45,379 nucleotides of DNA from a virus, in IMG/VR virus record IMGVR_UViG_3300045988_046206, positions 1-45,379 of that record; one strand, written 5' to 3'. The translations under genes and the position numbers were made by a program. Positions 1,057 to 31,294 of this stretch are shown one piece after another. The notes under the pieces were generated by a model, which worked only from the letters and a program-made list of their open reading frames with translations, was not told the origin of the DNA and did not search any database. Numbering within the stretch: position 1 is the first letter of the stretch; each line of letters begins with the position of its first letter.

Positions 1057-1380
1057 ATAACCCGGATTCCCGGGTTAGCAAGGTATTTTACGTGCTATGC
1101 CTAAACACGAGACGTTTCGGGCTACGTCAACACCGCCTATACGGTCGCACACCTCTGCACGGGTTGAATTCCACTGTTCAGTTATATGCTCTCACAAGGA
1201 GGTATGCCGCCATGCACTAACGGCAATGGTACGCGTCGGAAATTGCATCCGCTTTTCAACCTCCAGATTCCGCTCGAACCTGTTTCTGTTAAGGACACGC
1301 ACCTGAGAAAGGAGGAATCAATGAAAAAAAATGTCTATGTCAAGTGGCTGTAACCACTTACGAATCTTCCCTATGAATAC

Positions 1381-1420
1381 ATTTTACCACAGAACCTCCA
1401 AAAAGTTGTGGTACATGTTT
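1381..1420 (-). promoter_or_regulatory. Conserved 20-bp element copy 1 (minus: AAACATGTACCACAACTTTT) plus TGGTAAAAT exactly 18 nt after ACCAC
   Basis: Core 1401-1420 is identical to 11817-11836 and 19/20 identical to 6339-6358. The extended -10-like TGGTAAAAT is at 1381-1389. Confidence 0.6.
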
Positions 1421-1427
1421 TGGCTAA

Positions 1428-1982
1428 TTAGAGCATATCCCGGAGTTTTTCCACGTATCTTTTAACAAGATCACGTTCCTCCCGGCATTCCGCGTCCTTG
1501 GACATATCGCTCATTTCTGTTGTGAGTTCATCCAGATGTTCTTCCAATGCGGCAAGCATCTTTCTTTTACAGTCCTCAGACTTGCCGGAACGATAGCTCT
1601 GTTTCTGTGTCATATAGTCGTCATAAGCATCCCGCCCGTCAGAACGGCTGTAATGTCCTCTGACATAATGCTCGCCACGTCTGGCATAAGAACTACCTCT
1701 GTCGTAATCCGGCATCATTCTGCCGTCATTTGCGCTGTATCTCCCCATGCTGTCACGCTTTCTTCCGCGTTCGCTGTAATCGTCATTGTATCCGCTACGC
1801 ATCTCATCAAGAACAGTGTTGTAATATTCCACTTTTTTGTCCCAGTAATACGTATTCTTGATATCTTTATACATATCAATCAGCTTGTATGTCATTTCCA
1901 GATTTCCTGTGGTCAGCCCACTGTCAGCGATTTTGGAAAGTTCGTCTTCAATTCTTGCACATAAGTCTTTAATGTCTCTCAT
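1428..1982 (-). CDS. Hypothetical protein, 184 aa, helical ends with an R/Y/D/S-rich low-complexity centre
   Basis: Track ORF 1428..1988. ATG at 1982 lies 7 nt after AGGAGG. No motif recognised. Confidence 0.7.
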   Translation of the reverse strand: MRDIKDLCARIEDELSKIADSGLTTGNLEMTYKLIDMYKDIKNTYYWDKKVEYYNTVLDEMRSGYNDDYSERGRKRDSMGRYSANDGRMMPDYDRGSSYARRGEHYVRGHYSRSDGRDAYDDYMTQKQSYRSGKSEDCKRKMLAALEEHLDELTTEMSDMSKDAECREERDLVKRYVEKLRDML

Positions 1983-1993
1983 AATCACACCTC

Positions 1994-2416
1994 CTACGCT
2001 TCTCTGGTCACGACAATGTTTGCGTTCGCAACAGAAATTGCCTGATCGCTAGTGTTCTCTACTGCGATATTAACGCAACATCCGCGAGGTACATCAATAT
2101 AGATGCCTGCGGACACATTGTTGTACTGATTTACTGCTGCCGGTGTGGAAATCATCTGGGAAGAAAGAACCGGCTCACCAGAGATTGCAATTGCCAGAGA
2201 AATAGCTCCGACAGTACCGCCTGTTGGAATTGCGATATTACCAGAAAAATCCACGAAGAATCTCGCTTTGCACTGATTAGTCAGTCCTCTCAGTGTAATA
2301 ATTCCGCTTCCCTCTCTGTGCTGAATGCAGTTAGAGCCTTTAACTGCTGTGTTTGAAAATACTACGTTTCCATTTGCTGCTACAGTCTGAGCAGCTACAT
2401 TTGTAAATTCTGCCAT
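1994..2416 (-). CDS. Hypothetical protein resembling BclA C-terminal / ExsFA-type (C1q/TNF-like jelly-roll) domains
   Basis: 140 aa of all-beta-looking sequence. It ends ...GIYIDVPRGCCVNIAVENTSDQAISVANANIVVTREA, like exosporium nap-protein C-domains. RBS is GAAAGGAG. The family call is by resemblance only. Confidence 0.45.
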   Translation of the reverse strand: MAEFTNVAAQTVAANGNVVFSNTAVKGSNCIQHREGSGIITLRGLTNQCKARFFVDFSGNIAIPTGGTVGAISLAIAISGEPVLSSQMISTPAAVNQYNNVSAGIYIDVPRGCCVNIAVENTSDQAISVANANIVVTREA

Positions 2417-2436
2417 AAAAATACTCCTTTCATATC

Positions 2437-2463
2437 ACAAAAGGACAGGTCTCAGCCTGCCCC
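2437..2463 (-). terminator. Putative rho-independent terminator (minus strand)
   Basis: Minus strand reads GGGCAGG-CTGAGA-CCTGTCC followed by TTTTGTG. 7-bp stem including one G-U pair, short T run. Confidence 0.4.
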
Positions 2464-2525
2464 TCTGTGTAATACGGCATAGCCGACATCCGAATCAATC
2501 GAAAGATACTCTCGATATGAAGTTG

Positions 2526-3305
2526 TTAGCAATTACATCCAGTGTTACATCCGCATCCGTAAAATGTGTTCGGATTAGGAACCTGATATGCCGGAATCGG
2601 TGCTGGATTAATCGCATTAATGAGCTGCTGTGTCTGTGAAGCCATTGCAGTTGTGATCAATGCGCTCTGGCGATCCTGAGATGCAGCACGTCTGAGATCA
2701 TTGTTCTCAGCCTGCAAACTAGAAATCTTTTCGTTACAAAGATAATCAAGAATGGCTCTTGTTCCAGCATTCTGGCTGTCAATGATATCTCTTGTGTTGC
2801 TGTTCATGGTGTTTTGCAATGCACAGGTATTCTGTGCCATATTGTAGTTTACGCCCTGGATAGCTTCCCGGGTTTCACAACAACAGTTCGCAAGCTGAGC
2901 CTGTAAAGCATTGGTATTCTGCATATTCGCCACAGTATCGGCATTAATAGCCTGCTGGATACCGAAACCAGTCTGCATGATATTTGTGTTGATTCCATTG
3001 AATCCGGTAAGCATACCGTTGTTCATGGCATAAAAGCCATCGCACAGGCCACTGTTGATTCCGTCAAGTTTGCTGATTACTGCGGAGTTATCGAATCCTC
3101 TCTGAATATCTGCCTGAGTAGCTGCTGTGGCCGCATATCCACCACCGTTGCCATTGTTGCCCCAGCCATTGTTTCCCCATCCAAAGAAAGCAAAAATAAA
3201 TAAAACAATAATCCACCAGCTACCGTCTCCACCGAACATGCCGTCATTGTTTCTACCATTTCCAGTAGCGGCGGCAATATCTGCTAAGCTATAATTTCCA
3301 TCCAT
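2526..3305 (-). CDS. Hypothetical single-pass membrane protein with Gly/Asn/Trp repeats, N/Q/T-rich coiled region and Cys clusters
   Basis: 259 aa. TM segment WWIIVLFIFAFFGW is followed by GNNGWGNNGNGGG. Internal CCC triplet (LANCCCETR). C-terminus is FYGCGCNTGCNC. RBS is AAAGGAGA. Confidence 0.7.
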   Translation of the reverse strand: MDGNYSLADIAAATGNGRNNDGMFGGDGSWWIIVLFIFAFFGWGNNGWGNNGNGGGYAATAATQADIQRGFDNSAVISKLDGINSGLCDGFYAMNNGMLTGFNGINTNIMQTGFGIQQAINADTVANMQNTNALQAQLANCCCETREAIQGVNYNMAQNTCALQNTMNSNTRDIIDSQNAGTRAILDYLCNEKISSLQAENNDLRRAASQDRQSALITTAMASQTQQLINAINPAPIPAYQVPNPNTFYGCGCNTGCNC

Positions 3306-3325
3306 AATATAATCTCCTTTTTGTA

Positions 3326-3353
3326 TATTTACATCAATCTGGCCAGATTGTAA
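3326..3353 (-). promoter_or_regulatory. Sigma70-like promoter (minus: TTACAA-16 nt-TAAATA) with a perfect 14-bp palindrome AATCTGGCCAGATT in the spacer
   Basis: Read directly. The palindrome is at 3336-3349. Sits ~20 nt upstream of the RBS of 2526..3305. Confidence 0.45.
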
Positions 3354-3357
3354 TGTA

Positions 3358-3579
3358 CTATTTCATTCCTTTCAACATGTGCTGAAACTGTCCTGCCATC
3401 TGCTGAACTTGATTGAGCTGTTGCTGCGAAATCTTCCCAGACTGTAACATCTTTTCAACTTCTGCTTTCGGGTCCCCCCTAAAATTCTGTTTAAACTGCA
3501 TAAACTGCTGTATCATCTGCATTGGTCCGTTTCCCTGTGGCATCCCACCACCAAGTGCGTTAAATAATGGATTACTCAT
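3358..3579 (-). CDS. Hypothetical Q-rich small protein (73 aa)
   Basis: Track ORF 3358..3585. The second ATG (3579) has better spacing, 8 nt after GGAGG. Sequence is MSNPLFNALGGGMPQGNGPMQMIQQFMQFKQNF... Confidence 0.6.
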   Translation of the reverse strand: MSNPLFNALGGGMPQGNGPMQMIQQFMQFKQNFRGDPKAEVEKMLQSGKISQQQLNQVQQMAGQFQHMLKGMK

Positions 3580-4042
3580 TTGCATTTCCTCCCTTGACTG
3601 CTGATTCCTGCACGGTATTAGCTCTAACAGGTTCAGAAAAAGAATTTAATCGGTTTATGATAGCTTCATATTTGCCTTTCAAATCATCGTATTCCTGTCG
3701 TGTGACATATTTACTGTCCATGTTCTGAACAGGCTGTTTAGGTGGCATCTGAGTACCTATTTCGTGATACTCAAACGTCCGTAATGGTTGTGGCATACCG
3801 GAAACGTCTGTGGATTTTATGTAGAACTTTTCGCTTTCACTGTCCATCAGTAAAACACTTGTTCCGGGTGCTACCAGATAGGATTTTGCGCCGACTTCGC
3901 CAGACACCCACAGGATACCATTGTTATTCTGCTGGGGTTGCTGTACTGGTTGAGCTGGCATCTGGACAGGCTGTTGCTGAAATTGATTCATCTGTCCCGG
4001 AACGCCAAAACTATATTGATAAGGATTGTTATATAATGCCAT
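3572..4042 (-). CDS. Hypothetical protein with Q/P-rich N-terminus and a compact beta-rich core (156 aa)
   Basis: Track ORF 3572..4051 begins at a GTG. The ATG at 4042 lies 8 nt after AGGAGG. No motif recognised. Confidence 0.65.
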   Translation of the reverse strand: MALYNNPYQYSFGVPGQMNQFQQQPVQMPAQPVQQPQQNNNGILWVSGEVGAKSYLVAPGTSVLLMDSESEKFYIKSTDVSGMPQPLRTFEYHEIGTQMPPKQPVQNMDSKYVTRQEYDDLKGKYEAIINRLNSFSEPVRANTVQESAVKGGNANE

Positions 4043-4056
4043 CTCGTACACCTCCT

Positions 4057-4104
4057 ATGACTTATTCTATGACTTATTCTATGACTTATTCTATGACTTT
4101 CTAT
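4057..4104. repeat. Tandem 12-bp repeat ATGACTTATTCT x3 plus one degenerate copy, abutting the RBS of 3572..4042
   Basis: Read directly: copies at 4057-4068, 4069-4080 and 4081-4092 are identical. Copy 4093-4104 is degenerate (ATGACTTTCTAT). Confidence 0.9.
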
Positions 4105-4119
4105 AGCTATATTTTTGCA

Positions 4120-4155
4120 TAAAAAAAGAACCGGAAACAGGTCGTTTCTGGCTCT
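4120..4155 (-). terminator. Rho-independent terminator (minus strand)
   Basis: Minus strand reads AGAGCCAGAAAC-GACCT-GTTTCCGGTTCT followed by TTTTTTTAT. Lies directly downstream of 4175..4375. Confidence 0.8.
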
Positions 4156-4174
4156 AATTAGTGCCTAAAAAGTA

Positions 4175-4375
4175 TCAGCACACTTTAATTATTTTATTGT
4201 TTACCCGTCGGCTCAATCGTTTCGCCGTAGATATGCTCACATTCATTTTCTCAGCACAGCATTCGAGAGTGTATTCTTTGCATCTCAGCCGAAACAGTTT
4301 TTCTTCGTCCGGCGTAAAATTACACTCTGTCAAGAACCTGTCTATATCTTTCTTCGTGAACACATATAACTTCAT
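4175..4375 (-). CDS. Small sigma-70 region-4-like HTH protein (66 aa)
   Basis: MKLYVFTKKDIDRFLTECNFTPDEEKLFRLRCKEYTLECCAEKMNVSISTAKRLSRRVNNKIIKVC. The pattern L..RE..vF.Lr...g.s..EiAe.l..S..TVk..l.ra..Ki is typical of region 4. ATG at 4375 lies 7 nt after AAGGGG. Confidence 0.55.
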   Translation of the reverse strand: MKLYVFTKKDIDRFLTECNFTPDEEKLFRLRCKEYTLECCAEKMNVSISTAKRLSRRVNNKIIKVC

Positions 4376-4395
4376 AAGCATACCCCTTACCAATG

Positions 4396-4701
4396 CTACC
4401 GTTGATTCTGCGCAAGATACTCCGTGAGCTTCTGTTTTGTTTTTTTTAACTCCTCGACATTATTCCCACTGATCTGACTGTCCAACATGGTCGACAACAC
4501 TTCCAGAATCAATGAATCACGCTCTGCAATCCTCTGGAGACTCTCGTAATCTCGTTTGTCATGTTCTTCCAGTGTCTCTACTCGCTTATTGAGGCGAAAT
4601 GCCGGTGTAATCCATTTAAAGATTACGGCTGCCGCTCCTCCGACAATAGACACCCCTCCGCAGATTGAAAGGAATATTTGTACAAATTCTGATATGCTCA
4701 T
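4396..4701 (-). CDS. Hypothetical membrane-anchored coiled-coil protein (101 aa)
   Basis: N-terminal TM segment FVQIFLSICGGVSIVGGAAAVIF followed by a charged helical region. RBS is AAGGAG. Confidence 0.7.
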   Translation of the reverse strand: MSISEFVQIFLSICGGVSIVGGAAAVIFKWITPAFRLNKRVETLEEHDKRDYESLQRIAERDSLILEVLSTMLDSQISGNNVEELKKTKQKLTEYLAQNQR

Positions 4702-4705
4702 TTAG

Positions 4706-5089
4706 CTACTCCTTTTCCCAGTAATATACCGGGATCTCATTACCGCTATCCCATGTATCGAAATATTTGCCCTCTTGTACTGCCACAACATGACCATCTA
4801 TGCAAAGAATGTATGTGCCTGTCGGATGGTCTGTGCAAAAGTCATTGACTGTATAGATATATCGTTCTGATTGTTCAATCAGTTTACGTCTGTACCCATG
4901 CTTATAAAGGTATGCTCCCCAGACATAATTTGCGCTTGGCATATCTGATAGAGAACACGCTTGTACCATTAGCCCGGCGAATACTGTTTCCCAGTCGAAG
5001 CCAGTTGCTTTGCATATTGCCCGGACAACGCAATCTCCTGTTCTCTTATCCTTAACAGGATTCGGATTGAAATATTCCCATCTATCCAT
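4706..5089 (-). CDS. Hypothetical protein, possible papain-like cysteine peptidase fold
   Basis: 127 aa. Candidate catalytic Cys lies in the motif NPNP...GDCVVRAI, with a later GH (CIDGHVVAV). Translationally coupled (TGATG) to the minor capsid gene. The function call is tentative. Confidence 0.35.
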   Translation of the reverse strand: MDRWEYFNPNPVKDKRTGDCVVRAICKATGFDWETVFAGLMVQACSLSDMPSANYVWGAYLYKHGYRRKLIEQSERYIYTVNDFCTDHPTGTYILCIDGHVVAVQEGKYFDTWDSGNEIPVYYWEKE

Positions 5090-6318
5090 CAGTCAATCCC
5101 CTTTGCTGTTTTATAACGTTTTGCCGCTCCTCTGGCTTTAGCAGCGTTCTGACGGTTCCACTTAGCAATCATGAGCCGGTCTTGCAGTTCTCTCAAGTCG
5201 TTCTGCTTGCAGTAATCTTTATATGCAGTATTTTGTTTCTGCAAAAGATAAGACTTCCGGTCAAGGTCTTGTTGGAGTGCGAATCTTGCCTGTTCGTCCT
5301 TGCAGTTGTCAACCGCCGCTTGCAACCCAAGGACTTCACGCTTCGTTTTGCGGATTCTTCGTTCATAAGTACGTTGTCGTTGTTCCTTTTCGTACTGTTT
5401 GCCTTTGTCGGTTTTATCCTGTGCTGATAATTCCGCATAAGGATTAAATTCTCCATCACTGGCTCCAAAGCTATGCCGACAGTTGACCCCTGACAATCCG
5501 CTTGCTGTTCCATACCCAGTCAATGAGAACGGCGGAAATTTCTTACTCTTGCCAGAACGAGAGTATATCTTGCCTTGCCAAAACGAGTGATTTCCCGGAT
5601 TCTCGCCGCCGTCACCCGTCCTCGCTCCTATGTGCGCACTGACCAGAACTAAATCCCAGTCCATTTCTTCCATGCGTTTTAGGGATATATCTCCCGTAGC
5701 CTGCGCCACGCCAGTTCTAACAGAACGTGCAACTGCGGTTTCGATGGTGTCTTTTCTGCCAGATGGATATGTGACAGTGACGCCATCTGATACAACGTTA
5801 TTGACTGCCTCTTTGATGGCTTGCGTATACCCAACTGCTCCAGTCATTACATGATTATAGGCAAGGTCGCATTGTTCGATATAGAGTCTCTGGGCGGCAC
5901 TTGCGGTTGTTCTCGTGAAGTTCTTCCACTCGCCCATGGTTGCAAGCATATTCCGCTCCATGAGCCTTATCATAGATGGTGACTGTTCGAGCGGTACAGG
6001 GCTTAATCCCGCCGCCTTATATACCTTATCATCATAGTTCATTGCAGTGATTCCGGCATCTTCAAACGCTTCAAGAAGCTCCTGCTGTTCACGTTTGGTG
6101 TATTTGGATAGTTCCGCTAGAATGTCTTCTAGTAATTCACCAGATTCCTGTAGTGTTCTGATTCTCCATACATCAGCGTTGGTCAGAATATAATCCTCAC
6201 CTCTGCCGATTCTTGCCATCATCCGAGACACGATCTCAGAGATGATATACTGATGCAGTTCTTCTGCAATTTGTTCACTGCCCTCTGTTATCCGGCGCAA
6301 ATATTCAGGACTAAGCAT
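5089..6318 (-). CDS. Minor capsid / head morphogenesis protein (phage minor capsid protein 2, SPP1 gp7-like)
   Basis: 409 aa. The N-terminus MLSPEYLRRITEGSEQIAEELHQYIISEIVSRMMARIGRGEDYILTNADVWRI matches the minor-capsid-2 pattern. Basic C-terminal tail. RBS is AGAGGTGA. Confidence 0.75.
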   Translation of the reverse strand: MLSPEYLRRITEGSEQIAEELHQYIISEIVSRMMARIGRGEDYILTNADVWRIRTLQESGELLEDILAELSKYTKREQQELLEAFEDAGITAMNYDDKVYKAAGLSPVPLEQSPSMIRLMERNMLATMGEWKNFTRTTASAAQRLYIEQCDLAYNHVMTGAVGYTQAIKEAVNNVVSDGVTVTYPSGRKDTIETAVARSVRTGVAQATGDISLKRMEEMDWDLVLVSAHIGARTGDGGENPGNHSFWQGKIYSRSGKSKKFPPFSLTGYGTASGLSGVNCRHSFGASDGEFNPYAELSAQDKTDKGKQYEKEQRQRTYERRIRKTKREVLGLQAAVDNCKDEQARFALQQDLDRKSYLLQKQNTAYKDYCKQNDLRELQDRLMIAKWNRQNAAKARGAAKRYKTAKGID

Positions 6319-6358
6319 AGTATATCACCTCTTTCATCAAAAGTCGTGGTACATGTTT
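6319..6358 (-). promoter_or_regulatory. Conserved 20-bp element copy 2 (minus: AAACATGTACCACGACTTTT) plus TGATATACT 18 nt after ACCAC
   Basis: Core 6339-6358 is 19/20 identical to the other two copies. Here the -10-like element abuts the ATG at 6318 and overlaps its RBS, so a classical promoter role is doubtful. Confidence 0.45.
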
Positions 6359-6400
6359 GGAAAATATGCTACAATCAACCTATTAAGGAGGTGTCGCAAA

Positions 6401-6628
6401 ATGTTTTTAAAACTGAAAATTTATTGCACTTGTAATTGCAACTATTACGTAAATGAACAAATTAACACGGAAAAGGTAATTTGTCCAAACTGTGGCAAAG
6501 AGCATCCGTCTTCATCGCAAATCATATCTATGCTTCATATGGCTAAGTGCATTAATGATGGCAATGTCCCTGGTGCGAATACAGTGAGGACATTTGCTGT
6601 ATCCAAGCGAGAAGATTCTGACTGTTAA
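6401..6628 (+). CDS. Small zinc-ribbon protein (75 aa), opposite strand to all neighbours
   Basis: Track ORF 6353..6628 trimmed to the ATG 8 nt after AAGGAGG. Cys pairs are CTCNC and CPNC. An extended -10-like TGCTACAAT lies at 6367-6375. Confidence 0.6.
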   Translation: MFLKLKIYCTCNCNYYVNEQINTEKVICPNCGKEHPSSSQIISMLHMAKCINDGNVPGANTVRTFAVSKREDSDC

Positions 6629-6640
6629 TAATGTTATTAC

Positions 6641-6678
6641 AAAGTGGAGAGGGGTTTTTATCCTCCCCACTTTTTTTA
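6641..6678 (+). terminator. Rho-independent terminator (strong on plus strand, weak on minus)
   Basis: GTGGAGAGG-loop-CCTCCCCAC (9 pairs, 1 mismatch) followed by T7 on the plus strand. Only TTTGT follows on the minus strand. Confidence 0.7.
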
Positions 6679-6704
6679 CTTAATTCGCTAAAGCCCCCAT
6701 TTAG

Positions 6705-8381
6705 TTAATTACACATTAACTCGGGTACATCAGCTAACGCTCTCATATATAAAGTTTTCGCCCCTAATTCTGTTGGATGCACCTTATCATCATTCAGCAT
6801 TCCATCATACCAACTTGCTCCGCTACTTTCGGCATTAACGCCCTTTGCGAAATCAATATATCTATAACCACTATTTCTAGCAATTTCATTTTTATATATG
6901 TGGTTTCGAATTGGCGTATTTGGAAATGTTGCAAGAATAAGTTCTATATTATTTTCTTCACATAATGTTTTAACTTTTTCGTAGTAGTCTGCCCATTGTT
7001 CGTTTACCGCATCTCCATCATTATCATTCATTCCCATGCACCAAATTATAGTTTTCGGATTACTATATTTTAGATTTTCGATAAGTGAAGTGTATGCTCC
7101 TGAAGATTTTCTGCCAGGAAAACCATCTAATAGGTTATTAGTGTACCCTGCTTTTAGCAGGTGTTTAGTCCATCTTGAGCTATCAATACAACTAAAATAA
7201 CTGTCTCCGTATAACTGAATATCTTTGAAAAATCCATCGCAACTCCATGATAGTATGCAATCATTAAACGCCCCATTTACTGATTCTACAAAAATATTTC
7301 CTTCATTTCCAAACCAATTCCAATCAGTATATTCGTATGATACACCTTGACTTTGAATAGTTATTTTTGGATTTCCATTTGCGTCAACGTCAATCTTAAT
7401 TTGTAAATCTTTTGTTATTGTTAATCCATGTTGTTTCGTTCTTAATAGCTTTGTCCCATAGTAGGTTCTTAATTCAGTATCAGTAACAACGATACTGTTT
7501 AAATTTTCTCCGTGTCCTATTTTAATTTCTCCCATTGCATCGAGATTACAAGCGAAAGATAAATGTTTCAATGTTAATATGTTAGGCACAAAAGTAGATA
7601 AGGTATTTCCAGTTGTCAAATTTCCACTAATTGAAATATTTTTAGATTTATTCGCATAGATTTTATCTTGTTTTTTAGAAATTGCATCGACTTTTTTATT
7701 TAGATTATTAAACCCTTTAGGCGTAATTGTGCTAACAGTTACAGTTCTCTTTACATAAAACTGTATATTATTTACAAACCGCATAAGGCAAGTTATGTAT
7801 AGATTATCTACGCCTGACGGAACGGTATAAAGTTCAGTATCACTTGAAATAGATGCAGAAGATACTCGATCTGTGCCATTGTAAGCATCAATGAATCTCA
7901 TTACTTGATGCGCGGAATCAATTATTGCAGTGATAATGTCACCTTCTTGCAAATTATCTAAATGGACATAGAAATAATCTGTGTTTGTATTTGGTTTGCC
8001 ATTCCAATAATAATAATTGATAGTTTTAATAACATTTTGCTCAATGTTATGTGTTTCTGTTTTCGTTTCTGCATCTGTGATAGCACTTAAATCTTCCTTT
8101 AGCGAACCAGTTTCCTCTTTCAGTGAAGCAACGTCTGTCTTGTTCTGCTCGATCTGCTGTGCCTGTTCTGTGGTGGCACCGGGCTTGACCGGGTTCTTTT
8201 CAAGGTACTCATTTACTGCATTCTTGATTTCTTCCGGTGAAATCTCACCGCCTATTCCTTTTAAACATAATTCGTATAAATACTTCTCTTTTCTCGTGAT
8301 TGGTTTCGGGAGTTCGCCCTTGTAATCACCTGTCAAGTACGCGAGATACTTTTCTTCCCTTGTTACTGGTTTATCTGCCAT
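6705..8381 (-). CDS. Fibre-like structural protein with C-terminal SGNH/GDSL hydrolase (esterase) domain
   Basis: 558 aa. N-terminal paired motif TREEKYLAYLTG / TRKEKYLYELC is common in Firmicutes phage fibres. C-terminal blocks are YGDSYFS, MGMNDN and DKVHPT (SGNH blocks I, III and V). Confidence 0.7.
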   Translation of the reverse strand: MADKPVTREEKYLAYLTGDYKGELPKPITRKEKYLYELCLKGIGGEISPEEIKNAVNEYLEKNPVKPGATTEQAQQIEQNKTDVASLKEETGSLKEDLSAITDAETKTETHNIEQNVIKTINYYYWNGKPNTNTDYFYVHLDNLQEGDIITAIIDSAHQVMRFIDAYNGTDRVSSASISSDTELYTVPSGVDNLYITCLMRFVNNIQFYVKRTVTVSTITPKGFNNLNKKVDAISKKQDKIYANKSKNISISGNLTTGNTLSTFVPNILTLKHLSFACNLDAMGEIKIGHGENLNSIVVTDTELRTYYGTKLLRTKQHGLTITKDLQIKIDVDANGNPKITIQSQGVSYEYTDWNWFGNEGNIFVESVNGAFNDCILSWSCDGFFKDIQLYGDSYFSCIDSSRWTKHLLKAGYTNNLLDGFPGRKSSGAYTSLIENLKYSNPKTIIWCMGMNDNDGDAVNEQWADYYEKVKTLCEENNIELILATFPNTPIRNHIYKNEIARNSGYRYIDFAKGVNAESSGASWYDGMLNDDKVHPTELGAKTLYMRALADVPELMCN

Positions 8382-8385
8382 CTTT

Positions 8386-9831
8386 TTACTCCTCTCCGAA
8401 TAGTTTTGGTTCGTCTGGTTGAGCTTCTTTGACCATTGCTTTCGCTTCTTCCTCAGTCATTCCTTCAAATTTCACGAAATACAACCATGCCGGAACCTTG
8501 CCAGTGGTCACATACTGCCACCATCTTGCACGGTCGTTTTCTCGCACATACAGGATGTCTCCAAAATCATAATTGACTTCATAAGCTCCGACAGGTGCAA
8601 GCCCATACAGGTCAGCGTAAACGTTCAGTGCGTAGATAACATCATCAAGGCAACTTTCCAGTTTGTCTCGAACATCTTTAATGAACTGCACCGTCCTCTG
8701 CTGTTCTGCTTCTACTCCTGTAGCCGTCTGAATGCCGCTAGATTCGTTAAAAACAAAGTATCCGTTAGAGAATCCAATCTTATATCCTAACTGGCTTAAA
8801 AGGGCATTTATGCCGCTTATACGAGTATCTGTGTTGAGTTGTGGATTGATTTCTTGGTAAAACTCTTTCTCATCCTGTCCGAATACATTTTTCACATAAT
8901 CCGGCAAGCTCATTTCTTTGCATCTGTGCTCCATGGCCTGCGGTGTCATGGCGGATACTGGTGATCCGCTCGGCATCAGCAGTCGGTCATCTGCCAGAAC
9001 GGTTTTCTTAGAATCAAGGATTTCTTTTGCATTACGGCTGTATGCAATGTCCAGATCTTTCAACTCTTCGATAGCTTCTGCAAATATCGGAAGCCCAAGC
9101 GGTGTGCTAATGTCTACATTATTCGCTTGTGGTGTCCGCAACACTCCGTACAGAGGTCCATCCAGCTTCTCACCGTTTGCCTTGAGAATTGGTGGCGTGT
9201 CTTCCATGAGGTCAGCCCATTTGGTCTGTTTAAGGTCAATCTTATCTCCGATGCTCTGAGGAGATTTTGATACGTAGGCTCTGTTGGAAACGTAGTATGG
9301 ATAAGTTATCACTCCATCTATTGTAGTCTCAACAAACCTATGATATTCAAGCCTTGTATAGTATTTCCTTCCGACAGTATAAGAATCCTTAAATATAATC
9401 CCTTTGATCTCCTGGTTGTCATAGTCTACAATCATCACGTCTGCCGGAGTAAATACGTCAAGGCTCTCCCCATTCGGCTTGATGAAAACCGTTCCGTAAG
9501 CACAACTATATTCTACCCAGTGGCGTATCTGGAAATATACCTTGTCAATCTGTTCCTGCAACCATGTAGCCCTTGCGGAGCCATCTATCTGAATGCCAAT
9601 CGCCAATGTTGTGAGCCGGGCTGTTTCTGAGCAGACAGATTTGGCAAAATTAATTGTCTTGATATTATTCTTATCATCTAACCATTCCGGCGCGCCTCTG
9701 TAGATGTTCGCACACCGATTAATCAGTGATTCCATCTCCGGAAATTCTGCTGCCTGGATATTAAAATCCTCTTCGGCTTGTTTTTTAAAAATCATGTTAA
9801 ACCACCTTTTTAGTGTTGTTATAAGTCCCAT
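8386..9831 (-). CDS. Portal protein (SPP1 gp6-like)
   Basis: 481 aa, immediately downstream of the terminase (TAATG overlap). Size and sequence style match SPP1-family portals. An alternative start at 9795 has a good AAGGTGG RBS. Confidence 0.8.
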   Translation of the reverse strand: MGLITTLKRWFNMIFKKQAEEDFNIQAAEFPEMESLINRCANIYRGAPEWLDDKNNIKTINFAKSVCSETARLTTLAIGIQIDGSARATWLQEQIDKVYFQIRHWVEYSCAYGTVFIKPNGESLDVFTPADVMIVDYDNQEIKGIIFKDSYTVGRKYYTRLEYHRFVETTIDGVITYPYYVSNRAYVSKSPQSIGDKIDLKQTKWADLMEDTPPILKANGEKLDGPLYGVLRTPQANNVDISTPLGLPIFAEAIEELKDLDIAYSRNAKEILDSKKTVLADDRLLMPSGSPVSAMTPQAMEHRCKEMSLPDYVKNVFGQDEKEFYQEINPQLNTDTRISGINALLSQLGYKIGFSNGYFVFNESSGIQTATGVEAEQQRTVQFIKDVRDKLESCLDDVIYALNVYADLYGLAPVGAYEVNYDFGDILYVRENDRARWWQYVTTGKVPAWLYFVKFEGMTEEEAKAMVKEAQPDEPKLFGEE

Positions 9832-11468
9832 TATGCACTGTTACCTCGTCTTCTCCACAATGATTCTGAGCCATACCGGACGGAATCTATCATATGATTA
9901 TCCTTGTCTGGATATCCACTACAGATATTTCCGTCTTTGTCGCGTTCGTATTCGTATTTCTTAAACTCTTTGCAAGCATTTGGCGTTCTTTTTGGATCAA
10001 ACACAAGTTTTCTTCGTTGCAGCCACTTCATGGAATACTCAATACTTCCCGGTCCTTTGATTGCTCCCCTTGCTGGGAGTCCTGAATCTCTGTAATCATT
10101 GATTGATTTAGGCTCGGCAGAATCGCAAGTAATTTCGTAATCATCATACTGCCTTCGCTTGATTTCATTCGCAGTCCATTCATTTGATTTTTTGTTTTCG
10201 TAAATCTCGTCAATGAAATAGATTGTTTCTCTAGCTGAATCATAATAGATTCTGGAGAAAGCATATTTGTCCGGATACCAGCCCCAGTCAACCCCCTGAT
10301 AAATTCTATCAAAATGGCTGATCTCTTCGTCTGTGATAGTTCTTTCTTCGATATATTCAAAGATATTTCCACCATTTCCGTTGGCGTGTCCAAGGTACTC
10401 ATTTTCGTAAGCATCTGGATTTACTTCTTTTAGATGTTCGGCATCTGTGAGAAATACGTCGCCAAGCCACTCCTGTTCAATCCCTAAATCAAGGTATGTG
10501 CTATGCACAACCATTACATTTTTATCTTTTTCTTCTGCTTCTGCCGTGTACTCATTTGCCCAGTTGTTTTTACTCCTAGGCGGGTTGAACGACTTGAATT
10601 TATACGCTTCGTTTCCCCCTCGAATAGCAGACTGCTGGATATTTCGGATTTCTTCTGGATTAGAAAACTGGTCTAACTCCTCGAACCAGACAATACCTAT
10701 ATATCCAAACTCCGGCTTGATAGACTTAATCTTTAATGGATCGTCAGCACCACGAAAGTAAATCTTTTGTCCGGTGGGCTTATACGTAATCTCCATCGGA
10801 GATACTTTGCATACAAATTCCTCATTTAGATCTAATTTATCAATAGCCCATTTCATCTGAGCATAAACAGAATCTTTGATAGTGTTTCCAACTTTTCGCA
10901 GAATCAGAGCGTGCATGTTCGGATTATTCTTCAGCAGTTCCGGTATGATTAGCGATATGGTCGAGGACTTCATGGAACCACGTCCGCCAGGGAGAATGTA
11001 TTCGCTATGTTTCTTTGCCCGGATATCCCTAATCATTTTATGAAATACATCCGGTACAATATTCAGGTCAATATGGTATTCACCTTGTAATCTGGCTTTT
11101 TCTTCTGCTTTCCGCTGCTCTTCTCTGGCTTCTTTTATAGTAAGCGTTTTTTCCAGATCATTCATGGATTTCAGCTGATCGGAGAAGTCCGGAGTGAACC
11201 CGAATGAATCAGTCAGCTCACCTCTTGCGATCATAGAACGGCGTTGCTGAATTTCTGCCAGTGACATGATGTCAGTGCCTTTTTGCTTTTCGATGAGGGA
11301 CTGTTTTTCGGCTATATATGCAGAAATACAACCTTTTTCCAACAGTTTTTTTGTCGCGTTTCTAACGATTCCATTAGAGTATCCAGCTTTCCTTGCGGCG
11401 TCAGATGCATTCCCGCCATTCTTTATATATTCAAGTGCAAACGCTTCCTGTTTAGGCGTTAAGTTCAT
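9831..11468 (-). CDS. terL: Terminase: TerS-like N-terminal HTH domain fused to the large subunit (PBSX/XtmB-type ATPase-nuclease)
   Basis: 545 aa. Residues 1-~60 (MNLTPKQEAFALEYIKNGGNASDAARKAGYS) match the Terminase_2 small-subunit motif. These are followed by Walker A-like GGRGSMKS, Walker B VWFEELD, and nuclease motifs GVDWGW, DSAEP and HMIDSVRY. Confidence 0.85.
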   Translation of the reverse strand: MNLTPKQEAFALEYIKNGGNASDAARKAGYSNGIVRNATKKLLEKGCISAYIAEKQSLIEKQKGTDIMSLAEIQQRRSMIARGELTDSFGFTPDFSDQLKSMNDLEKTLTIKEAREEQRKAEEKARLQGEYHIDLNIVPDVFHKMIRDIRAKKHSEYILPGGRGSMKSSTISLIIPELLKNNPNMHALILRKVGNTIKDSVYAQMKWAIDKLDLNEEFVCKVSPMEITYKPTGQKIYFRGADDPLKIKSIKPEFGYIGIVWFEELDQFSNPEEIRNIQQSAIRGGNEAYKFKSFNPPRSKNNWANEYTAEAEEKDKNVMVVHSTYLDLGIEQEWLGDVFLTDAEHLKEVNPDAYENEYLGHANGNGGNIFEYIEERTITDEEISHFDRIYQGVDWGWYPDKYAFSRIYYDSARETIYFIDEIYENKKSNEWTANEIKRRQYDDYEITCDSAEPKSINDYRDSGLPARGAIKGPGSIEYSMKWLQRRKLVFDPKRTPNACKEFKKYEYERDKDGNICSGYPDKDNHMIDSVRYGSESLWRRRGNSA

Positions 11469-11488
11469 CTAATCACCTCTGTCCATCC

Positions 11489-11746
11489 TCATTTTCTGAC
11501 TGCCTCCCATATCTCTTTTAGGCACATGACTACATCATACTGAGATGCAGTTCTTAATATTTCATAATCGCAATCTTTCCATTCACCATGTTTTGTCGGT
11601 CTGAATACCGGCGTTGATATGATTGTTACTGTAATCAATCGTTCCTGCTCATGGCTGTAGAATTGTGATGTTCCAATTTTTATGATTAATCCGGTGGATA
11701 ATATAGCTTTTTGAAGTTTTCTTGTAACTGCTTTTAAGTTTGCCAT
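11489..11746 (-). CDS. Hypothetical protein (85 aa), first gene upstream of the terminase
   Basis: RBS is GGAGGTGA. No motif recognised. Confidence 0.65.
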   Translation of the reverse strand: MANLKAVTRKLQKAILSTGLIIKIGTSQFYSHEQERLITVTIISTPVFRPTKHGEWKDCDYEILRTASQYDVVMCLKEIWEAVRK

Positions 11747-11796
11747 ATCATCACCTCCAACTGGCTATAAAATCCCATAGTAACACTTCTGAGTAT

Positions 11797-11836
11797 ATTT
11801 TATCACAGGTCAGTAGAAAAGTTGTGGTACATGTTT
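11797..11836 (-). promoter_or_regulatory. Conserved 20-bp element copy 3 (minus: AAACATGTACCACAACTTTT) plus TGATAAAAT 18 nt after ACCAC; candidate late promoter
   Basis: Core 11817-11836 is identical to 1401-1420. The extended -10-like element is at 11797-11805, ~50 nt upstream of the ATG at 11746. Confidence 0.6.
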
Positions 11837-11870: not shown

Positions 11871-11899
11871 TTGACACACCACCAAATTGGTGGTATTAT
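11871..11899 (+). promoter_or_regulatory. Consensus sigma70 promoter TTGACA-17 nt-TATTAT with a 17-bp palindrome ACCACCAA-A-TTGGTGGT filling the spacer
   Basis: Read directly. The palindrome is at 11878-11894. Lies 30 nt upstream of the ATG at 11930. Confidence 0.75.
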
Positions 11900-11929: not shown

Positions 11930-12277
11930 ATGAAAAAATACAACTTATCAAACATTATGAAAAGAGCATGGGAACTGGTTAAAAAAGCCGGAATGACAAT
12001 TTCCTCCGGACTTAAAAAAGCATGGGAGGAGGCAAAAACAATAGAAAAGAAGATCTTTGAAGGACGCATGGAAATGACAGTTCCAGAGGCAGACAATAAT
12101 ACTGTAAGTGTTAGATTGTGGAAGAAAGGATCCTACAAAAGAATCTACTTCAACGACTACAAAAACAGAGCTGTTGGCTATATCGACTGTGTATCCCGCA
12201 CAGCACATTACATGGACGGATACGCTAGAATGTATGCACCGGCCATTGACAGATTTATGGAAGAATATGAGTTTTAA
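11930..12277 (+). CDS. Hypothetical protein (115 aa)
   Basis: RBS is GGAGGAAAG. The N-terminus has a repeated K(R/K)AWE motif (IMKRAWELVKKAG, LKKAWEEAK). Confidence 0.7.
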   Translation: MKKYNLSNIMKRAWELVKKAGMTISSGLKKAWEEAKTIEKKIFEGRMEMTVPEADNNTVSVRLWKKGSYKRIYFNDYKNRAVGYIDCVSRTAHYMDGYARMYAPAIDRFMEEYEF

Positions 12278-12295
12278 TTTAAGGAGGAAATAAAG

Positions 12296-12865
12296 ATGGA
12301 AAAATGGACAATTCGTATTGACGATTCTAAGATGTCAATGTTAAGAAACTATGGGAGTTGCTACAAGCACGGTGGAGGAGCTGGAGGATATTTTGATTTC
12401 TTCGGGGATTCCTTGCAAGAGGCTGCCGATAGTCTTATACATGTATTAGTTGATGCATTCTCTGATGACAGCGTTACCATATTGGAGTATCCGGAACATG
12501 CAATTATCGAAGAGAGAATACATGAATATGCGAACTGTGCAGAGAAACATATTACTCTCATCTTTCCGTGCAAGTGCCGGAAATATAAAACTGGTATTGG
12601 TGATATCAATTTCAACAACGATATCCGTATTATTCTTCAGGAGCAAAAGATGCAGGTTGCCGAAATGCGTGCATTATTAGATGAATCACGCGTGGCGTTT
12701 TCTAAGCAGTACAATATCCCCGTAAGAACGCTTGAAAACTGGGAGTCCGGAAAGAGTCAATGTCCTGAATATGTAAGGCAACTTCTTGAGAGAGCTGTTA
12801 GGGAGGACGCAAAAGTTAAAAATGATGAATCAGACACCAACGCAGAAGATACTGGAAGCTTATGA
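12296..12865 (+). CDS. Hypothetical protein with C-terminal XRE/antitoxin-type HTH
   Basis: 189 aa. RBS is AAGGAGGA. The C-terminus FSKQYNIPVRTLENWESGKSQCPEYVRQLLERAV matches the TL.NWE.G.r.P pattern of MqsA/HigA-like HTH domains. Confidence 0.65.
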   Translation: MEKWTIRIDDSKMSMLRNYGSCYKHGGGAGGYFDFFGDSLQEAADSLIHVLVDAFSDDSVTILEYPEHAIIEERIHEYANCAEKHITLIFPCKCRKYKTGIGDINFNNDIRIILQEQKMQVAEMRALLDESRVAFSKQYNIPVRTLENWESGKSQCPEYVRQLLERAVREDAKVKNDESDTNAEDTGSL

Positions 12866-13148
12866 AGAAAGTCAAACTCTGACTGGTATTCACAAGATCA
12901 CTGGATACAACTGGCAAAGGATAGCAAAAACGCTTTCTACAGAAGGTATCGTAGTTAATGAAACACAGGCACTTATTATAGACCTGCATTATCGTGGAAA
13001 AAGTGCCGGCGAAATCTCAGCCATTACAGGCTTTGCCATGAGTACGGTTATGGCATATCTTCCAAGAGTACGACCAGCATATATGGAAAATCGATCAAAA
13101 AATGCAATGAGAATTGAAAAATATAGACGCAAAAAGGAGAGCCGGTAA
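12822..13148 (+). CDS. Hypothetical HTH protein (108 aa)
   Basis: Track ORF 12786..13148 (TTG start) trimmed to the ATG at 12822. Two HTH-like stretches (ITGYNWQRIAKTL, SAGEISAITGFAMSTVMAYL). Overlaps the upstream gene by 44 nt. The RBS is distant. Confidence 0.5.
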   Translation: MMNQTPTQKILEAYEESQTLTGIHKITGYNWQRIAKTLSTEGIVVNETQALIIDLHYRGKSAGEISAITGFAMSTVMAYLPRVRPAYMENRSKNAMRIEKYRRKKESR

Positions 13149-13170
13149 ATACCGACTCTCTAATTTTATT
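13136..13170. terminator. Bidirectional terminator between convergent genes
   Basis: GGAGAGCCGG-TAAATA-CCGACTCTC hairpin (one mismatch), flanked by A5 upstream and a T-rich run downstream. Confidence 0.5.
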
Positions 13171-13749: not shown

Positions 13750-13920
13750 TCACAAAAATATATTCTTTTCTTCGCGCTTTTTCGCGCATTCTTCGCAAAT
13801 AAAGATCGCTTTCGGATACCTAAAACGGCTATCATTAAGTATCGGATAATACGGTTCATACGCTGTGGTTTTCCATTTGCCACAAATATTGCACTTTTTC
13901 ACAGTTTCGTTTATATTCAT
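13750..13920 (-). CDS. Small zinc-ribbon protein (56 aa), below the ORF-track cutoff
   Basis: Hand translation: MNINETVKKCNICGKWKTTAYEPYYPILNDSRFRYPKAIFICEECAKKREEKNIFL (CxxC...CxxC). It fills an otherwise empty 190-nt gap. Confidence 0.5.
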   Translation of the reverse strand: MNINETVKKCNICGKWKTTAYEPYYPILNDSRFRYPKAIFICEECAKKREEKNIFL

Positions 13921-13929
13921 TGCCATACA

Positions 13930-14196
13930 TCATTCACTTCCTGTAATCTCATCAATACAATCGTTCCAACCATCACGGTAATCATCGTTTGCATATTTGC
14001 AACTATCTTCATAAGTGAGTTTTTCTGGCAGCAAAGTTAGATAGCACCATTCCGGTATATTTTTCATTCCAATATCGTTTAGTGTGTGGCTCAATTTGCA
14101 AAGAATAAATTCTCCTGCTGGAACTTTTTTCTTTTCTCCAAATCTACATGAATCACAATTTTCTGGCGTTTTCATCACTAATACTGATTTACTCAT
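13930..14196 (-). CDS. Hypothetical protein (88 aa)
   Basis: RBS is AGGAGG. ATGA-type overlap with the upstream gene. Confidence 0.65.
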   Translation of the reverse strand: MSKSVLVMKTPENCDSCRFGEKKKVPAGEFILCKLSHTLNDIGMKNIPEWCYLTLLPEKLTYEDSCKYANDDYRDGWNDCIDEITGSE

Positions 14197-15278: not shown

Positions 15279-15593
15279 TTATTCCTCCTCCCACACTCCC
15301 AATAACCGCATTCTCTCATACAGTACAGCGACGGTCTTGCGTCTGTACCCATAAAAATCTTTCGGATTCATCGGGATATATCTTTCTTTGCTGATTTTCC
15401 TGTAACTTTTCCGGTGAAGAATATTTTCAATAACCATATCCGCTATCACCGTATTTTTCGGGCAAGCTGACAAGGCAGCACTGGTAAGCAGGTATCCATA
15501 CTCTGCCGGAAAGTCTTTCAGCATCGTATTCAGTTTTTCTATGTCCTCTGTCGGAATACCGTAGTCTTTCAGCTTTTTATTCCTTGTCAGCAT
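15279..15593 (-). CDS. Putative transcriptional regulator (sigma-r4/ArpU-like C-terminal helix pattern), 104 aa
   Basis: Track ORF 15279..15626 trimmed to the ATG 5 nt after AAAGGAGA. The C-terminus DFYGYRRKTVAVLYERMRLLG resembles the ...tyyr.rkkal..la..lg ending of phage late activators. Resemblance only. Confidence 0.4.
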   Translation of the reverse strand: MLTRNKKLKDYGIPTEDIEKLNTMLKDFPAEYGYLLTSAALSACPKNTVIADMVIENILHRKSYRKISKERYIPMNPKDFYGYRRKTVAVLYERMRLLGVWEEE

Positions 15594-29990: not shown

Positions 29991-30115
29991 AAAATACTTG
30001 CATCACAACTGAATAGCGAAGATGATGCGTACAACACACAAACCATATTGTATCATCTTCGGCTATTTTGGGCAATACAGAAAATTTGTTCACATTTCAA
30101 ACAAGGAGGAATATC

Positions 30116-31294
30116 ATGCCGAAGAAAAGAAAAACTTATCCAAAATTACCAAACGGATTCGGGAGTATCCGTTATCTTGGCAAGAACCGACGTAATTGCT
30201 ATGCCGTGCATCCACCGGCAACGATTGACGCATCAGGAAAAGCGATCCGCCCACCCGCGATCTGCTACGTTGACGACTGGCTAAAGGGTTTTGCTGTCTT
30301 AACTGCCTACAAAGCCGGAACATATAAGCCAGGAATGGAGAATGACCTACCTGTATCTCCTACCGCCGATACAGATACCCTTGTGAGCCGCATATTGGCT
30401 GATTACGGGACGATAAAAGGAGTAGAGGGTAAACATCCAGAGATTAAGAAATTAACGTTTGCAGAGGTATACGAACGGTTTATGGCATGGAAGTTCGCCG
30501 AGGGAACGACTTACTCAAAAGCAACGAAGTCAAACTATTCGGCATCCTATTCGTACTGCAAGCCATTGCACGACAGACCTTTTGAGGACTTAAAAGCTAC
30601 TGACCTGCAAGAATTTGTCGATAGTCAAAAAGGTTTTAAAAGAGGGAGTTTGAGAGTAATACTGGTGCTGTTTAACCAGATGTACAAATATGCGATGTAC
30701 GCTGAAATCGTATCAGAGAACAAATCCAGATACGTCAAGATAAACAAAGAGGACGACACGGAACATGGTACTGCATTTTCTGAACAGGAACTGGAAATCC
30801 TGTGGCAAAATTCAGCAGATTTTGACGTACAGTTAATTCTGATCATGTGCTATTCCGGCTGGAGAATCGGAGAAATTGAGAATCTGGAGGTTAATCTGGA
30901 TGAACGATATTTTAAAGGCGGCTCAAAAACAAAAGCTGGCAAAGGCAGGATCGTTCCTATACATCCGTGTATCTACGATTTTGTCAGAACAAGAATCGAA
31001 ACTGACGGAACTCTACTGAACATTAACAAGGTCACCTATCGGATGTACCGATTCTATCCCGTATTGGAAAAATTAGGAATAGTCGGAGATCCGAAGCACA
31101 CACCACACGATTGTCGGCACACATTTTCTGCTCTGTGTGAAAAATATTCCGTCAGAGAAAACGACAGGAAAAGAATGCTAGGACATGCATTTGGGAATGA
31201 TATCACGAACGCTGTATATGGACATCGAACAGTAGAAGAACTTCGAACAGAGATTGAGAAAATAGAAGTTCCGTTTGTGACTAACTGTGACTAA
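30116..31294 (+). CDS. int: Tyrosine integrase
   Basis: Track ORF trimmed to the ATG after AAGGAGGA. The C-terminal catalytic region is ...WRIGEI...HTPHDCRHTFSALC...LGHAFGNDITNAVYGH (R, H-x-x-R, H, Y). Confidence 0.9.
   Translation: MPKKRKTYPKLPNGFGSIRYLGKNRRNCYAVHPPATIDASGKAIRPPAICYVDDWLKGFAVLTAYKAGTYKPGMENDLPVSPTADTDTLVSRILADYGTIKGVEGKHPEIKKLTFAEVYERFMAWKFAEGTTYSKATKSNYSASYSYCKPLHDRPFEDLKATDLQEFVDSQKGFKRGSLRVILVLFNQMYKYAMYAEIVSENKSRYVKINKEDDTEHGTAFSEQELEILWQNSADFDVQLILIMCYSGWRIGEIENLEVNLDERYFKGGSKTKAGKGRIVPIHPCIYDFVRTRIETDGTLLNINKVTYRMYRFYPVLEKLGIVGDPKHTPHDCRHTFSALCEKYSVRENDRKRMLGHAFGNDITNAVYGHRTVEELRTEIEKIEVPFVTNCD

Follow-up and report, generated by a model that had tools for sequence, protein, structure and literature searches.

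How does a temperate phage switch on its late genes when the DNA in front of them holds no consensus promoter? The question is raised by the virus of IMG/VR record IMGVR_UViG_3300045988_046206, a complete circular 45.3-kb temperate siphovirus whose 45 379 nucleotides are called the window throughout; its circularity follows from a 55-nt terminal repeat. The terminase and portal genes lie on the minus strand beyond a strong hairpin terminator and a block of genes on the opposite strand (Table 1). Because these two features cut off the early operon, the late operon requires a promoter of its own, and no consensus promoter was found upstream of the terminase when one was sought there. What stands at this position is one of three copies of a 20-nucleotide element, AAACATGTACCACRACTTTT, numbered here in the order of their coordinates. 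Our proposal is that each 20-mer forms the upstream half of a late promoter that depends on an activator, and that it is read by the product of the gene at 15279–15593, which we call ACT. From the sequence comparisons described below, we judge this reading reasonably likely.

Searching the window with AAACATGTACCACRACTTTT and tolerating up to three mismatches returned exactly three matches, all on the minus strand and all without a mismatch. The chance expectation is 0.01, and three matches were reached in none of 100 dinucleotide-preserving shuffles. The distance to the downstream motif is fixed, as copies 1, 2 and 3 share the arrangement ACCAC-N18-TGnTAnAnT, in which the second part resembles an extended -10 element. 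TGNTANNNT occurs at 139 sites in the window; a comparison, at fixed offset, of the 40 nt that precede each of them found a common upstream element at these three sites only. There are no weaker additional copies of the motif in the window, where matches with one or two mismatches stay at chance level and have no -10 element. With the -10 hexamer set at -12 to -7, the 13-mer box AAACATGTACCAC occupies about -46 to -34 and the full 20-mer reaches -27; the nominal -35 hexamer is then ACAACT, which agrees with TTGACA at two of six positions. The preliminary description of this DNA had pointed out the thrice-present 20-mer, the 18-nt gap between ACCAC and an extended -10-like motif, the location of the element in the place of a -35 box that it does not resemble, and the long gene blocks behind copies 1 and 3. 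The first three observations are borne out by these counts and the last by the gene context.

Looking for the element in related phages had also been advised, and a scan of viral contigs for AACATGTACCACNAC found it at homologous positions. Of the 131 sites returned, some 85 come from human-gut phages and are homologs of copy 1, 2 or 3. Another five represent a fourth context, GCAAACATGTACCACAAC-N-TGGTAAAAT, which precedes tail chaperone and tape-measure genes of different phages (class 4), and these phages encode a family member at 33% identity; the remaining sites are chance matches in unrelated coding DNA. Information content over 31 distinct copy-3-type sites, taken from loci picked without use of the motif, peaks at the box and at TGnTA(...T) and is lowest in the spacer. 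The box and the extended -10 are conserved, and the spacer and flanks are variable. The host is a member of the Lachnospiraceae, and the virus a temperate gut phage of Blautia or other Lachnospiraceae: a prophage of Blautia fusiformis CLA-AA-H217 (L488) encodes a 95% identical activator protein, and distant homologs occur in genomes of Lachnospiraceae, Clostridium, Dorea, Faecalimonas and Acetatifactor. One relative (L011, IMGVR_UViG_3300045988_012853) has at position 3916 a terminase promoter with the flanks of copy 3 and the spacer and -10 of copy 1, which suggests recombination or gene conversion between promoter copies.

The relatives carry one of three boxes at the copy-1 and copy-3 positions, designated ACCAC, GGGAC and TAGAG, each at the same spacing to an extended -10 and without a -35 hexamer. 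The closest deposited genome, MT835739.1 (L121), is about 86% identical to the window over 1237–6692. It has AAAATGTGGGGAC-N18-TGATACTAT at the copy-1 position and AAAATGTGGGGAC-N18-TGGTAATAT at the terminase position, and its copy 2 is still ACCAC. The third type, AAAAGTGGTAGAG-N18/19-TGGTATTAT or TGTTATAAT, was found at the terminase and copy-1 positions of many contigs. These two positions are 10 kb apart, and the box type is the same at both in 23–24 of the 25 loci that hold both (5 ACCAC/ACCAC, 5 TAGAG/TAGAG and 13 GGGAC/GGGAC). One locus is ambiguous, with a GGGAC copy-1 box and a terminase class that has both ACCAC and GGGAC sites (L307), and another is discordant (L330). Between the two positions lies copy 2, and whatever their type, its box is ACCAC throughout. 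The same 85-aa ORF and TerL (96–99% identical) follow an ACCAC box in the window and a TAGAG box in three other phages (L130, L154 and L169); box type and downstream genes are uncoupled. The agreement of two sites at a distance of 10 kb in a mosaic background indicates a trans-acting reader.

Two candidates for such a reader had been named in the preliminary description, the protein encoded at 4175–4375, which resembles sigma region 4, and the regulator encoded at 15279–15593. The latter is backed by the way in which box types co-vary with its paralogs. Counting sites that have 6 kb or more of sequence upstream, a TAGAG box in front of the terminase has its own paralog ending no more than 400 nt upstream in 41 of 41 cases, and a GGGAC box in 22 of 22. 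For ACCAC boxes at the terminase position, 32 of 33 loci have an ACT-type gene 0.4–6 kb upstream; in the remaining one, a class-4 locus, the ACT-type gene is downstream. Across all fetched loci, 79 TAGAG-type and 70 GGGAC-type paralogs each have their own box within 400 nt downstream, and no cross-pairing of paralog and box type occurs among these adjacent pairs. In 59 loci that encode ACT at 95% identity or more and have the terminase in range, the same partition is seen: in 27 the terminase promoter is of the ACCAC type and a second paralog is absent, and in the other 32 a second paralog is present and the terminase has no ACCAC promoter. A family profile search places the second paralog in exactly those relatives with a TAGAG-type terminase promoter. 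MT835739.1 has two ACT homologs, one of which (10180–10479) ends just upstream of its GGGAC terminase promoter; the other (13821–14072, minus strand) is a truncated ACT-like remnant that lacks the first 39 codons and is 89% identical to residues 40–102 of P0122. In the window itself the ACT gene is 3.4 kb upstream of the terminase promoter, with small genes and the opposite-strand block in between.

The arrangement extends to more distant members of the family. Those at 30–40% identity in Lachnospiraceae have an A-tract, a variable box and an extended -10 that start 20–50 nt past the stop codon. A divergent set with the motif DFYAYRRK has single sites directly 3' of the gene, and no box pairs at the same offset were found within its 10-kb flanks, where probably one promoter is in range. 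A gut metagenome prophage (L122/L124, 613–1632) has a 94% identical ACT gene in a different prophage backbone, which also encodes a DNA methylase, a serine recombinase and, in a diversity-generating-retroelement-like neighbourhood, an RVT_1 reverse transcriptase.

Members of the ACT family are basic proteins (pI about 9) of about 100 aa with the signature MRTRxKxYxDYG ... YIPxxxxDFYGYRRK. The family comprises about 155 clusters at 50% identity, and close relatives of ACT are very abundant in gut metagenomes, with clusters of thousands of sequences. The AlphaFold (AF2) model of ACT is confident (pLDDT 95.5) and all-helical, with six helices. Four residues on the long C-terminal helix, K78, R84, T87 and V90, are common to ACT and its class-4 homolog, both of which go with ACCAC boxes, and differ in the other two paralog types; we offer them as a lead to the specificity residues. 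Searched against the BFVD, the model has a single significant neighbour, which is another uncharacterised member of the family.

Putting these observations together, the promoters of the window would consist of an extended -10, TGnTAnAAT, for the host primary sigma factor, and of a 13–16-bp box at about -46 to -31 that would take the place of the missing -35 hexamer. The 104-aa ACT protein, made from the early operon's end, would bind the box and recruit the host RNA polymerase or stabilise it. From copy 3 the terminase and portal genes would be switched on, and the RAGATH-21 RNA, tRNA-Met, scaffold, head, tail and lysis genes from copy 1. The unit probably switched on from copy 2 would be the genes from min-cap2 onward, past an inserted cargo block. 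That the window has late promoters without a -35 hexamer, read through a phage-encoded factor, had been suggested earlier, and this suggestion is supported by the joint conservation of box and -10, by the fourth context and by the box swaps. Comparison of sequences gives the anatomy of the promoters, their conservation, the interchange of three boxes at fixed positions and the co-variation with paralogs. From these we infer DNA binding by ACT, its contact with RNA polymerase, the transcription starts and the late timing. A wider proposition is advanced more tentatively, as a possibility that we would not yet assume: the MRTR...DFYGYRRK proteins of about 100 aa may constitute a family with a new fold that serves Lachnospiraceae phages as promoter-specificity factors. 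The long C-terminal helix of each would bind one box at -46 to -31 and so replace -35 recognition. They may have diversified into orthogonal activator/box cassettes (at least ACCAC, GGGAC and TAGAG) that are exchanged as units and re-matched at every late promoter.

Several observations weigh against ACT as the activator. Its family has no match in Pfam, NCBIfam or PHROGs, so that DNA binding is proposed without support from homology, and it has no relative among PDB sequences. A Foldseek search of the ACT model against the PDB gave no significant neighbour (best E = 1.4, TM 0.41). The co-variation rests on three cassette types, and their many occurrences are not independent events. The association also runs one way, as ACT is found in phages with a TAGAG or GGGAC terminase promoter as well. 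MT835739.1 has an intact ACCAC copy 2 together with nothing more of ACT than the N-terminally truncated remnant. For 27 ACT loci the late region is outside the fetched 10-kb flanks, and the same holds for the loci of B. fusiformis (L488) and of the L122 type; those of the 27 for which there is a gene map (L122-type) have a different prophage backbone. Finally, an ordinary start at copy 2 would not serve min-cap2, the gene directly behind it, where the -10 abuts the start codon.

The preliminary description had already warned of this last point, and the warning was justified. A transcript starting about 7 nt beyond the -10-like motif of copy 2, near 6312, would begin inside codon 3 of min-cap2, and no alternative in-frame start is available upstream, where there is a TGA stop. 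The start codon of min-cap2 is ATG in the window (6316–6318) and in all four box-less compact junctions counted, and ATA in 41 of 63 distinct copy-2 contexts. Occurrence of the box goes with what lies between the portal gene and min-cap2. Where the two genes are adjacent, none of 30 distinct junctions has it; where there is an insert, 51 junctions have the box and 12 do not. Four of the 12 are really adjacent (their gap of 75–970 nt is an alignment artefact) and the other eight belong to distant phages. Homology among the relatives stops at the upstream edge of the copy-2 box, and at least two different cargo flanks are found there. The box also covers -36 to -24 of the promoter of the divergent gene 6401–6628, which is of the extended -10 kind (TGCTACAAT, 6367–6375), an overlap that had been noticed before and that we can confirm. 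The cargo of the window (6401–8381) holds this divergent gene, which encodes a 75-aa zinc-ribbon protein on the plus strand, and a gene for a 558-aa protein whose C-terminal part matches GDSL-like lipases/acylhydrolases below the Pfam threshold; relatives have other cargo or none. Copy 2 is possibly a promoter that re-starts transcription of the genes past the cargo, possibly a site at which the activator shuts off the divergent cargo promoter, and possibly a recombination scar. That it is intact in MT835739.1, a phage with no intact ACT, speaks for its being dispensable, at least there.

The behaviour of copy 2 gives some weight to the idea that the 20-mer serves mainly as a boundary between modules or a sequence for recombination, used in cassette swaps and cargo insertion, with copy 2 in particular a non-functional scar. 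The exact break of homology at the edge of the copy-2 box with its different cargo flanks, the restriction of copy 2 to junctions with inserts, the mixture of copy-3 flanks and copy-1 spacer in L011, the retention of copy 2 in a phage without intact ACT and a -10 unable to serve the adjacent gene would all fit such a role. However, an 18-nt spacing to an extended -10 that is fixed in four contexts and three box types is not expected of pure boundaries, and nor is the co-variation of two positions 10 kb apart. The case is strong for copy 2 only, where it is compatible with a promoter role, and as an account of the element as a whole we give it a slim chance. Another account accepts that the box is read and assigns the reading to the 66-aa region-4-like protein of 4175–4375, in the manner of LtrA, or to a host factor, the ACT family being merely linked. 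This protein does have weak matches to sigma region 4 and to the C-terminus of ECF sigma factors (PHROG 1190, E = 9e-7; TIGR02937, E = 1e-4; Sigma70_r4, E = 0.01), Ltr family II (LtrA) is region-4-like (PMC3753634), and the protein shares with copy 2, always ACCAC, its invariance across phage types. The same invariance tells against it: its sequence, including the whole helix-turn-helix, is identical in ACCAC, GGGAC and TAGAG phages, and we therefore rejected it as the factor that sets box specificity. Of the earlier proposal that it might be the reader, the weak likeness to sigma region 4 stands and the specificity role does not. Moreover, its gene lies within the late region, downstream of copy 2, and class-4 loci have an ACCAC box and a family member with no 4175–4375 homolog in the fetched 12–14 kb. 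We hold this account to be very improbable. A profile–profile comparison of ACT with this protein was negative (probability 4%). A split sigma factor assembled from 4396–4701 and 4175–4393 was also considered and rejected; 4396–4701 encodes a membrane and coiled-coil protein without sigma region 2.

A third possibility leaves the promoters in place and changes the nature of the family protein, which would be a region-4 substitute or sigma appropriator (similar to T4 MotA/AsiA, with its -30 box), a minimal sigma-like subunit, or a Q-type factor conferring terminator resistance. The place of the box at -35 and the host-type -10 would suit such a role. Among the weakest Foldseek matches of ACT there are sigma domains, and viral entries named 'ECF sigma' in the BFVD reach a TM of about 0.5; downstream of copy 1, a hairpin and T-run lie 20–55 nt past the predicted start. 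Yet every structural match to sigma is non-significant, the ECF entries included, and in the PDB, where no TM exceeds 0.43, sigma entries score 0.23–0.28 with E values not below 1. When 81 diverse members of the family were searched against Pfam and NCBIfam at E ≤0.01, a Sigma70_r2 or r4 profile matched none of them. A lambda Q-type layout, which would combine a Q-binding element at a constitutive promoter with a pause near the promoter and a terminator further down, is not seen either: a -35 is missing, copy 3 has no terminator-like site behind it, and the copy-1 hairpin stands 10 nt off its T-run and is thus not a canonical terminator. We regard this possibility as unlikely, and return to ACT as a classical activator in the comparisons that close this analysis.

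Table 1. Positions of the elements and genes discussed, in coordinates of the window (functions and transcription starts are predicted).
Feature	Position	Strand	Remarks
Copy 1, 20-mer	1401–1420	-	7 nt past the stop codon of the 186-aa gene 1428–1988
Copy 1, extended -10 TGGTAAAAT	1381–1389	-	predicted start near 1374
Copy 2, 20-mer (G at position 14)	6339–6358	-	adjoins Phage_min_cap2; back-to-back with plus-strand gene 6401–6628
Copy 2, -10-like TGATATACT	6319–6327	-	follows the ribosome-binding site and precedes the ATG at 6318
Copy 3, 20-mer	11817–11836	-	upstream of the 85-aa ORF, TerS-TerL and portal
Copy 3, extended -10 TGATAAAAT	11797–11805	-	predicted start near 11790
ACT, proposed cognate activator	15279–15593	-	104 aa, pI 9.3, starts MLTRNKK; near the end of the early operon
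Strong hairpin terminator	13137–13160	-	end of the early minus-strand operon
Opposite-strand block	11930–13148	+	between the early operon and the late genes
85-aa ORF	11746–11489	-	first after copy 3
TerS-TerL fusion	11468–9831	-	single 545-aa ORF
Portal gene	9831–8386	-	
Phage_min_cap2 (minor capsid protein 2)	6318–5089	-	directly after copy 2
RAGATH-21 RNA	1303–1228	-	Rfam RF03097, full length, 90.6 bits (gathering score 70.3)
tRNA-Met	1056–984	-	
Endolysin	33207–31573	-	
Integrase	30068–31294	+	

The transcription units that would start at the three copies include particle and lysis genes. The 545-aa ORF behind copy 3 has a Terminase_2 small-terminase domain (residues 3–109) followed by the ATPase and nuclease domains of a large terminase, and looks like a TerS-TerL fusion. 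Eight small genes lie between min-cap2 and copy 1. Downstream of copy 1 come the RAGATH-21 RNA, which is probably the first product of the copy-1 late transcript, and the tRNA-Met gene, followed by the scaffold, major head, tail and lysis genes, which continue across the circular junction. The hairpin in this stretch has a 6-bp stem, AAGTGG/CCACTT (1335–1352, minus strand), and is followed 10 nt on by a T8 run (1318–1325). In the opposite direction, a near-consensus promoter, TTGACA-17-TATTAT with a TG (11871–11899, plus strand), drives the block 11930–13148. The spacer of this promoter holds a perfect palindrome, ACCACCAA-T-TTGGTGGT (11878–11894), which also occurs in another locus (L210). 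Of the 12 positions of the box core TACCACAACTTT, 10 agree with one half of the palindrome, TACCACCAATTT; the palindrome may be an operator, and the activator acting on it could possibly be the same one.

Late-gene control is uncharted in the abundant temperate phages of gut Lachnospiraceae, and a search of one literature library found no paper on the ACT family or on RAGATH-21. If the proposal is correct, it identifies the switch by which these prophages are committed to making particles and gives an annotation to a sizeable family now labelled 'hypothetical'. Promoter copies would also be seen to mark the edges of cargo insertions. Three natural and apparently orthogonal activator/promoter pairs, with candidate residues, would become usable as genetic parts in Clostridia; should the wider reading of orthogonal cassettes hold as well, gut Clostridia would have a natural set of orthogonal transcription switches.

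How does this system compare with known ones? The middle promoters of T4, which are used through sigma appropriation by MotA and AsiA, combine a host-type and often extended -10 with a phage box in place of the -35. The layout of the promoters described here is similar, but the MotA box is centred near -30 and the box here spans -46 to -31. No MotA or AsiA homolog was detected, and no evidence of a co-factor was found here. Membership in the sigma-70 or ECF families is not indicated by the profile searches of the family, whose proteins have only about 100 aa, and the -10 element fits the primary sigma factor of the host. A likeness is also seen to Mor and C of phage Mu, small activators that serve several promoters with a usable -10 and a poor -35, bind just upstream of and over the -35 region and recruit host RNA polymerase (bioRxiv 10.1101/2025.05.02.651988). 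Mor and C are also paralogs with distinct site specificities, a division that resembles the box types here. In contrast to our boxes, among which the three types share no common dyad, Mor/C bind as a tetramer to a dyad-symmetric site centred near -43.5; a Firmicute host and an extended TGn -10 are further differences, and the Mor-family Pfam profile has no match in the ACT family.

By analogy, the functionally closest known system appears to be that of the Ltr (RinA/ArpU) late activators. The Ltr superfamily consists of RinA, ArpU, LtrA, LtrB/DUF1492 and LtrC, the late regulators of Gram-positive phages (PMC3753634, PMC3152322). Each activator has its site just distal to its own gene, shows cognate specificity and is the sole phage factor needed for late transcription (PMC3753634). 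The likeness includes a site directly distal to the activator gene and 5' of terS, the arrangement found with the TAGAG and GGGAC paralogs (41 of 41 and 22 of 22, as given above); related phages that differ in their cognate activator/site pairs; and a target set of packaging, morphogenesis and lysis genes, which is proposed for the window. It does not extend to the protein sequences. Profiles for four of the five families, namely RinA and ArpU (TIGRFAMs), Sigma70_r4 and DUF1492 (the fifth is phi55 ORF34-like), have no match in ACT and two paralogs (E values up to 1–5), and none of the 81 family members matches them in the Pfam and NCBIfam searches. The Ltr proteins share a conserved C-terminal domain with a fold like that of sigma region 4; the ACT model has no significant structural match to sigma region 4 in the PDB. 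The sites differ as well. The Ltr type has three 7-nt direct repeats, which are absent from the promoter regions of the window, MT835739.1 and another relative (L129), each of which has a single box of 13–16 bp fused to an extended -10. There are up to three late promoter copies here against one terS promoter in the Ltr phages, and in the window the activator gene is 3.4 kb away from the terminase promoter. The system thus appears, as far as its sequences tell, to be new in its protein family and in the architecture of its sites, and similar to RinA/Ltr or to Mor/C of Mu in the way it would work.

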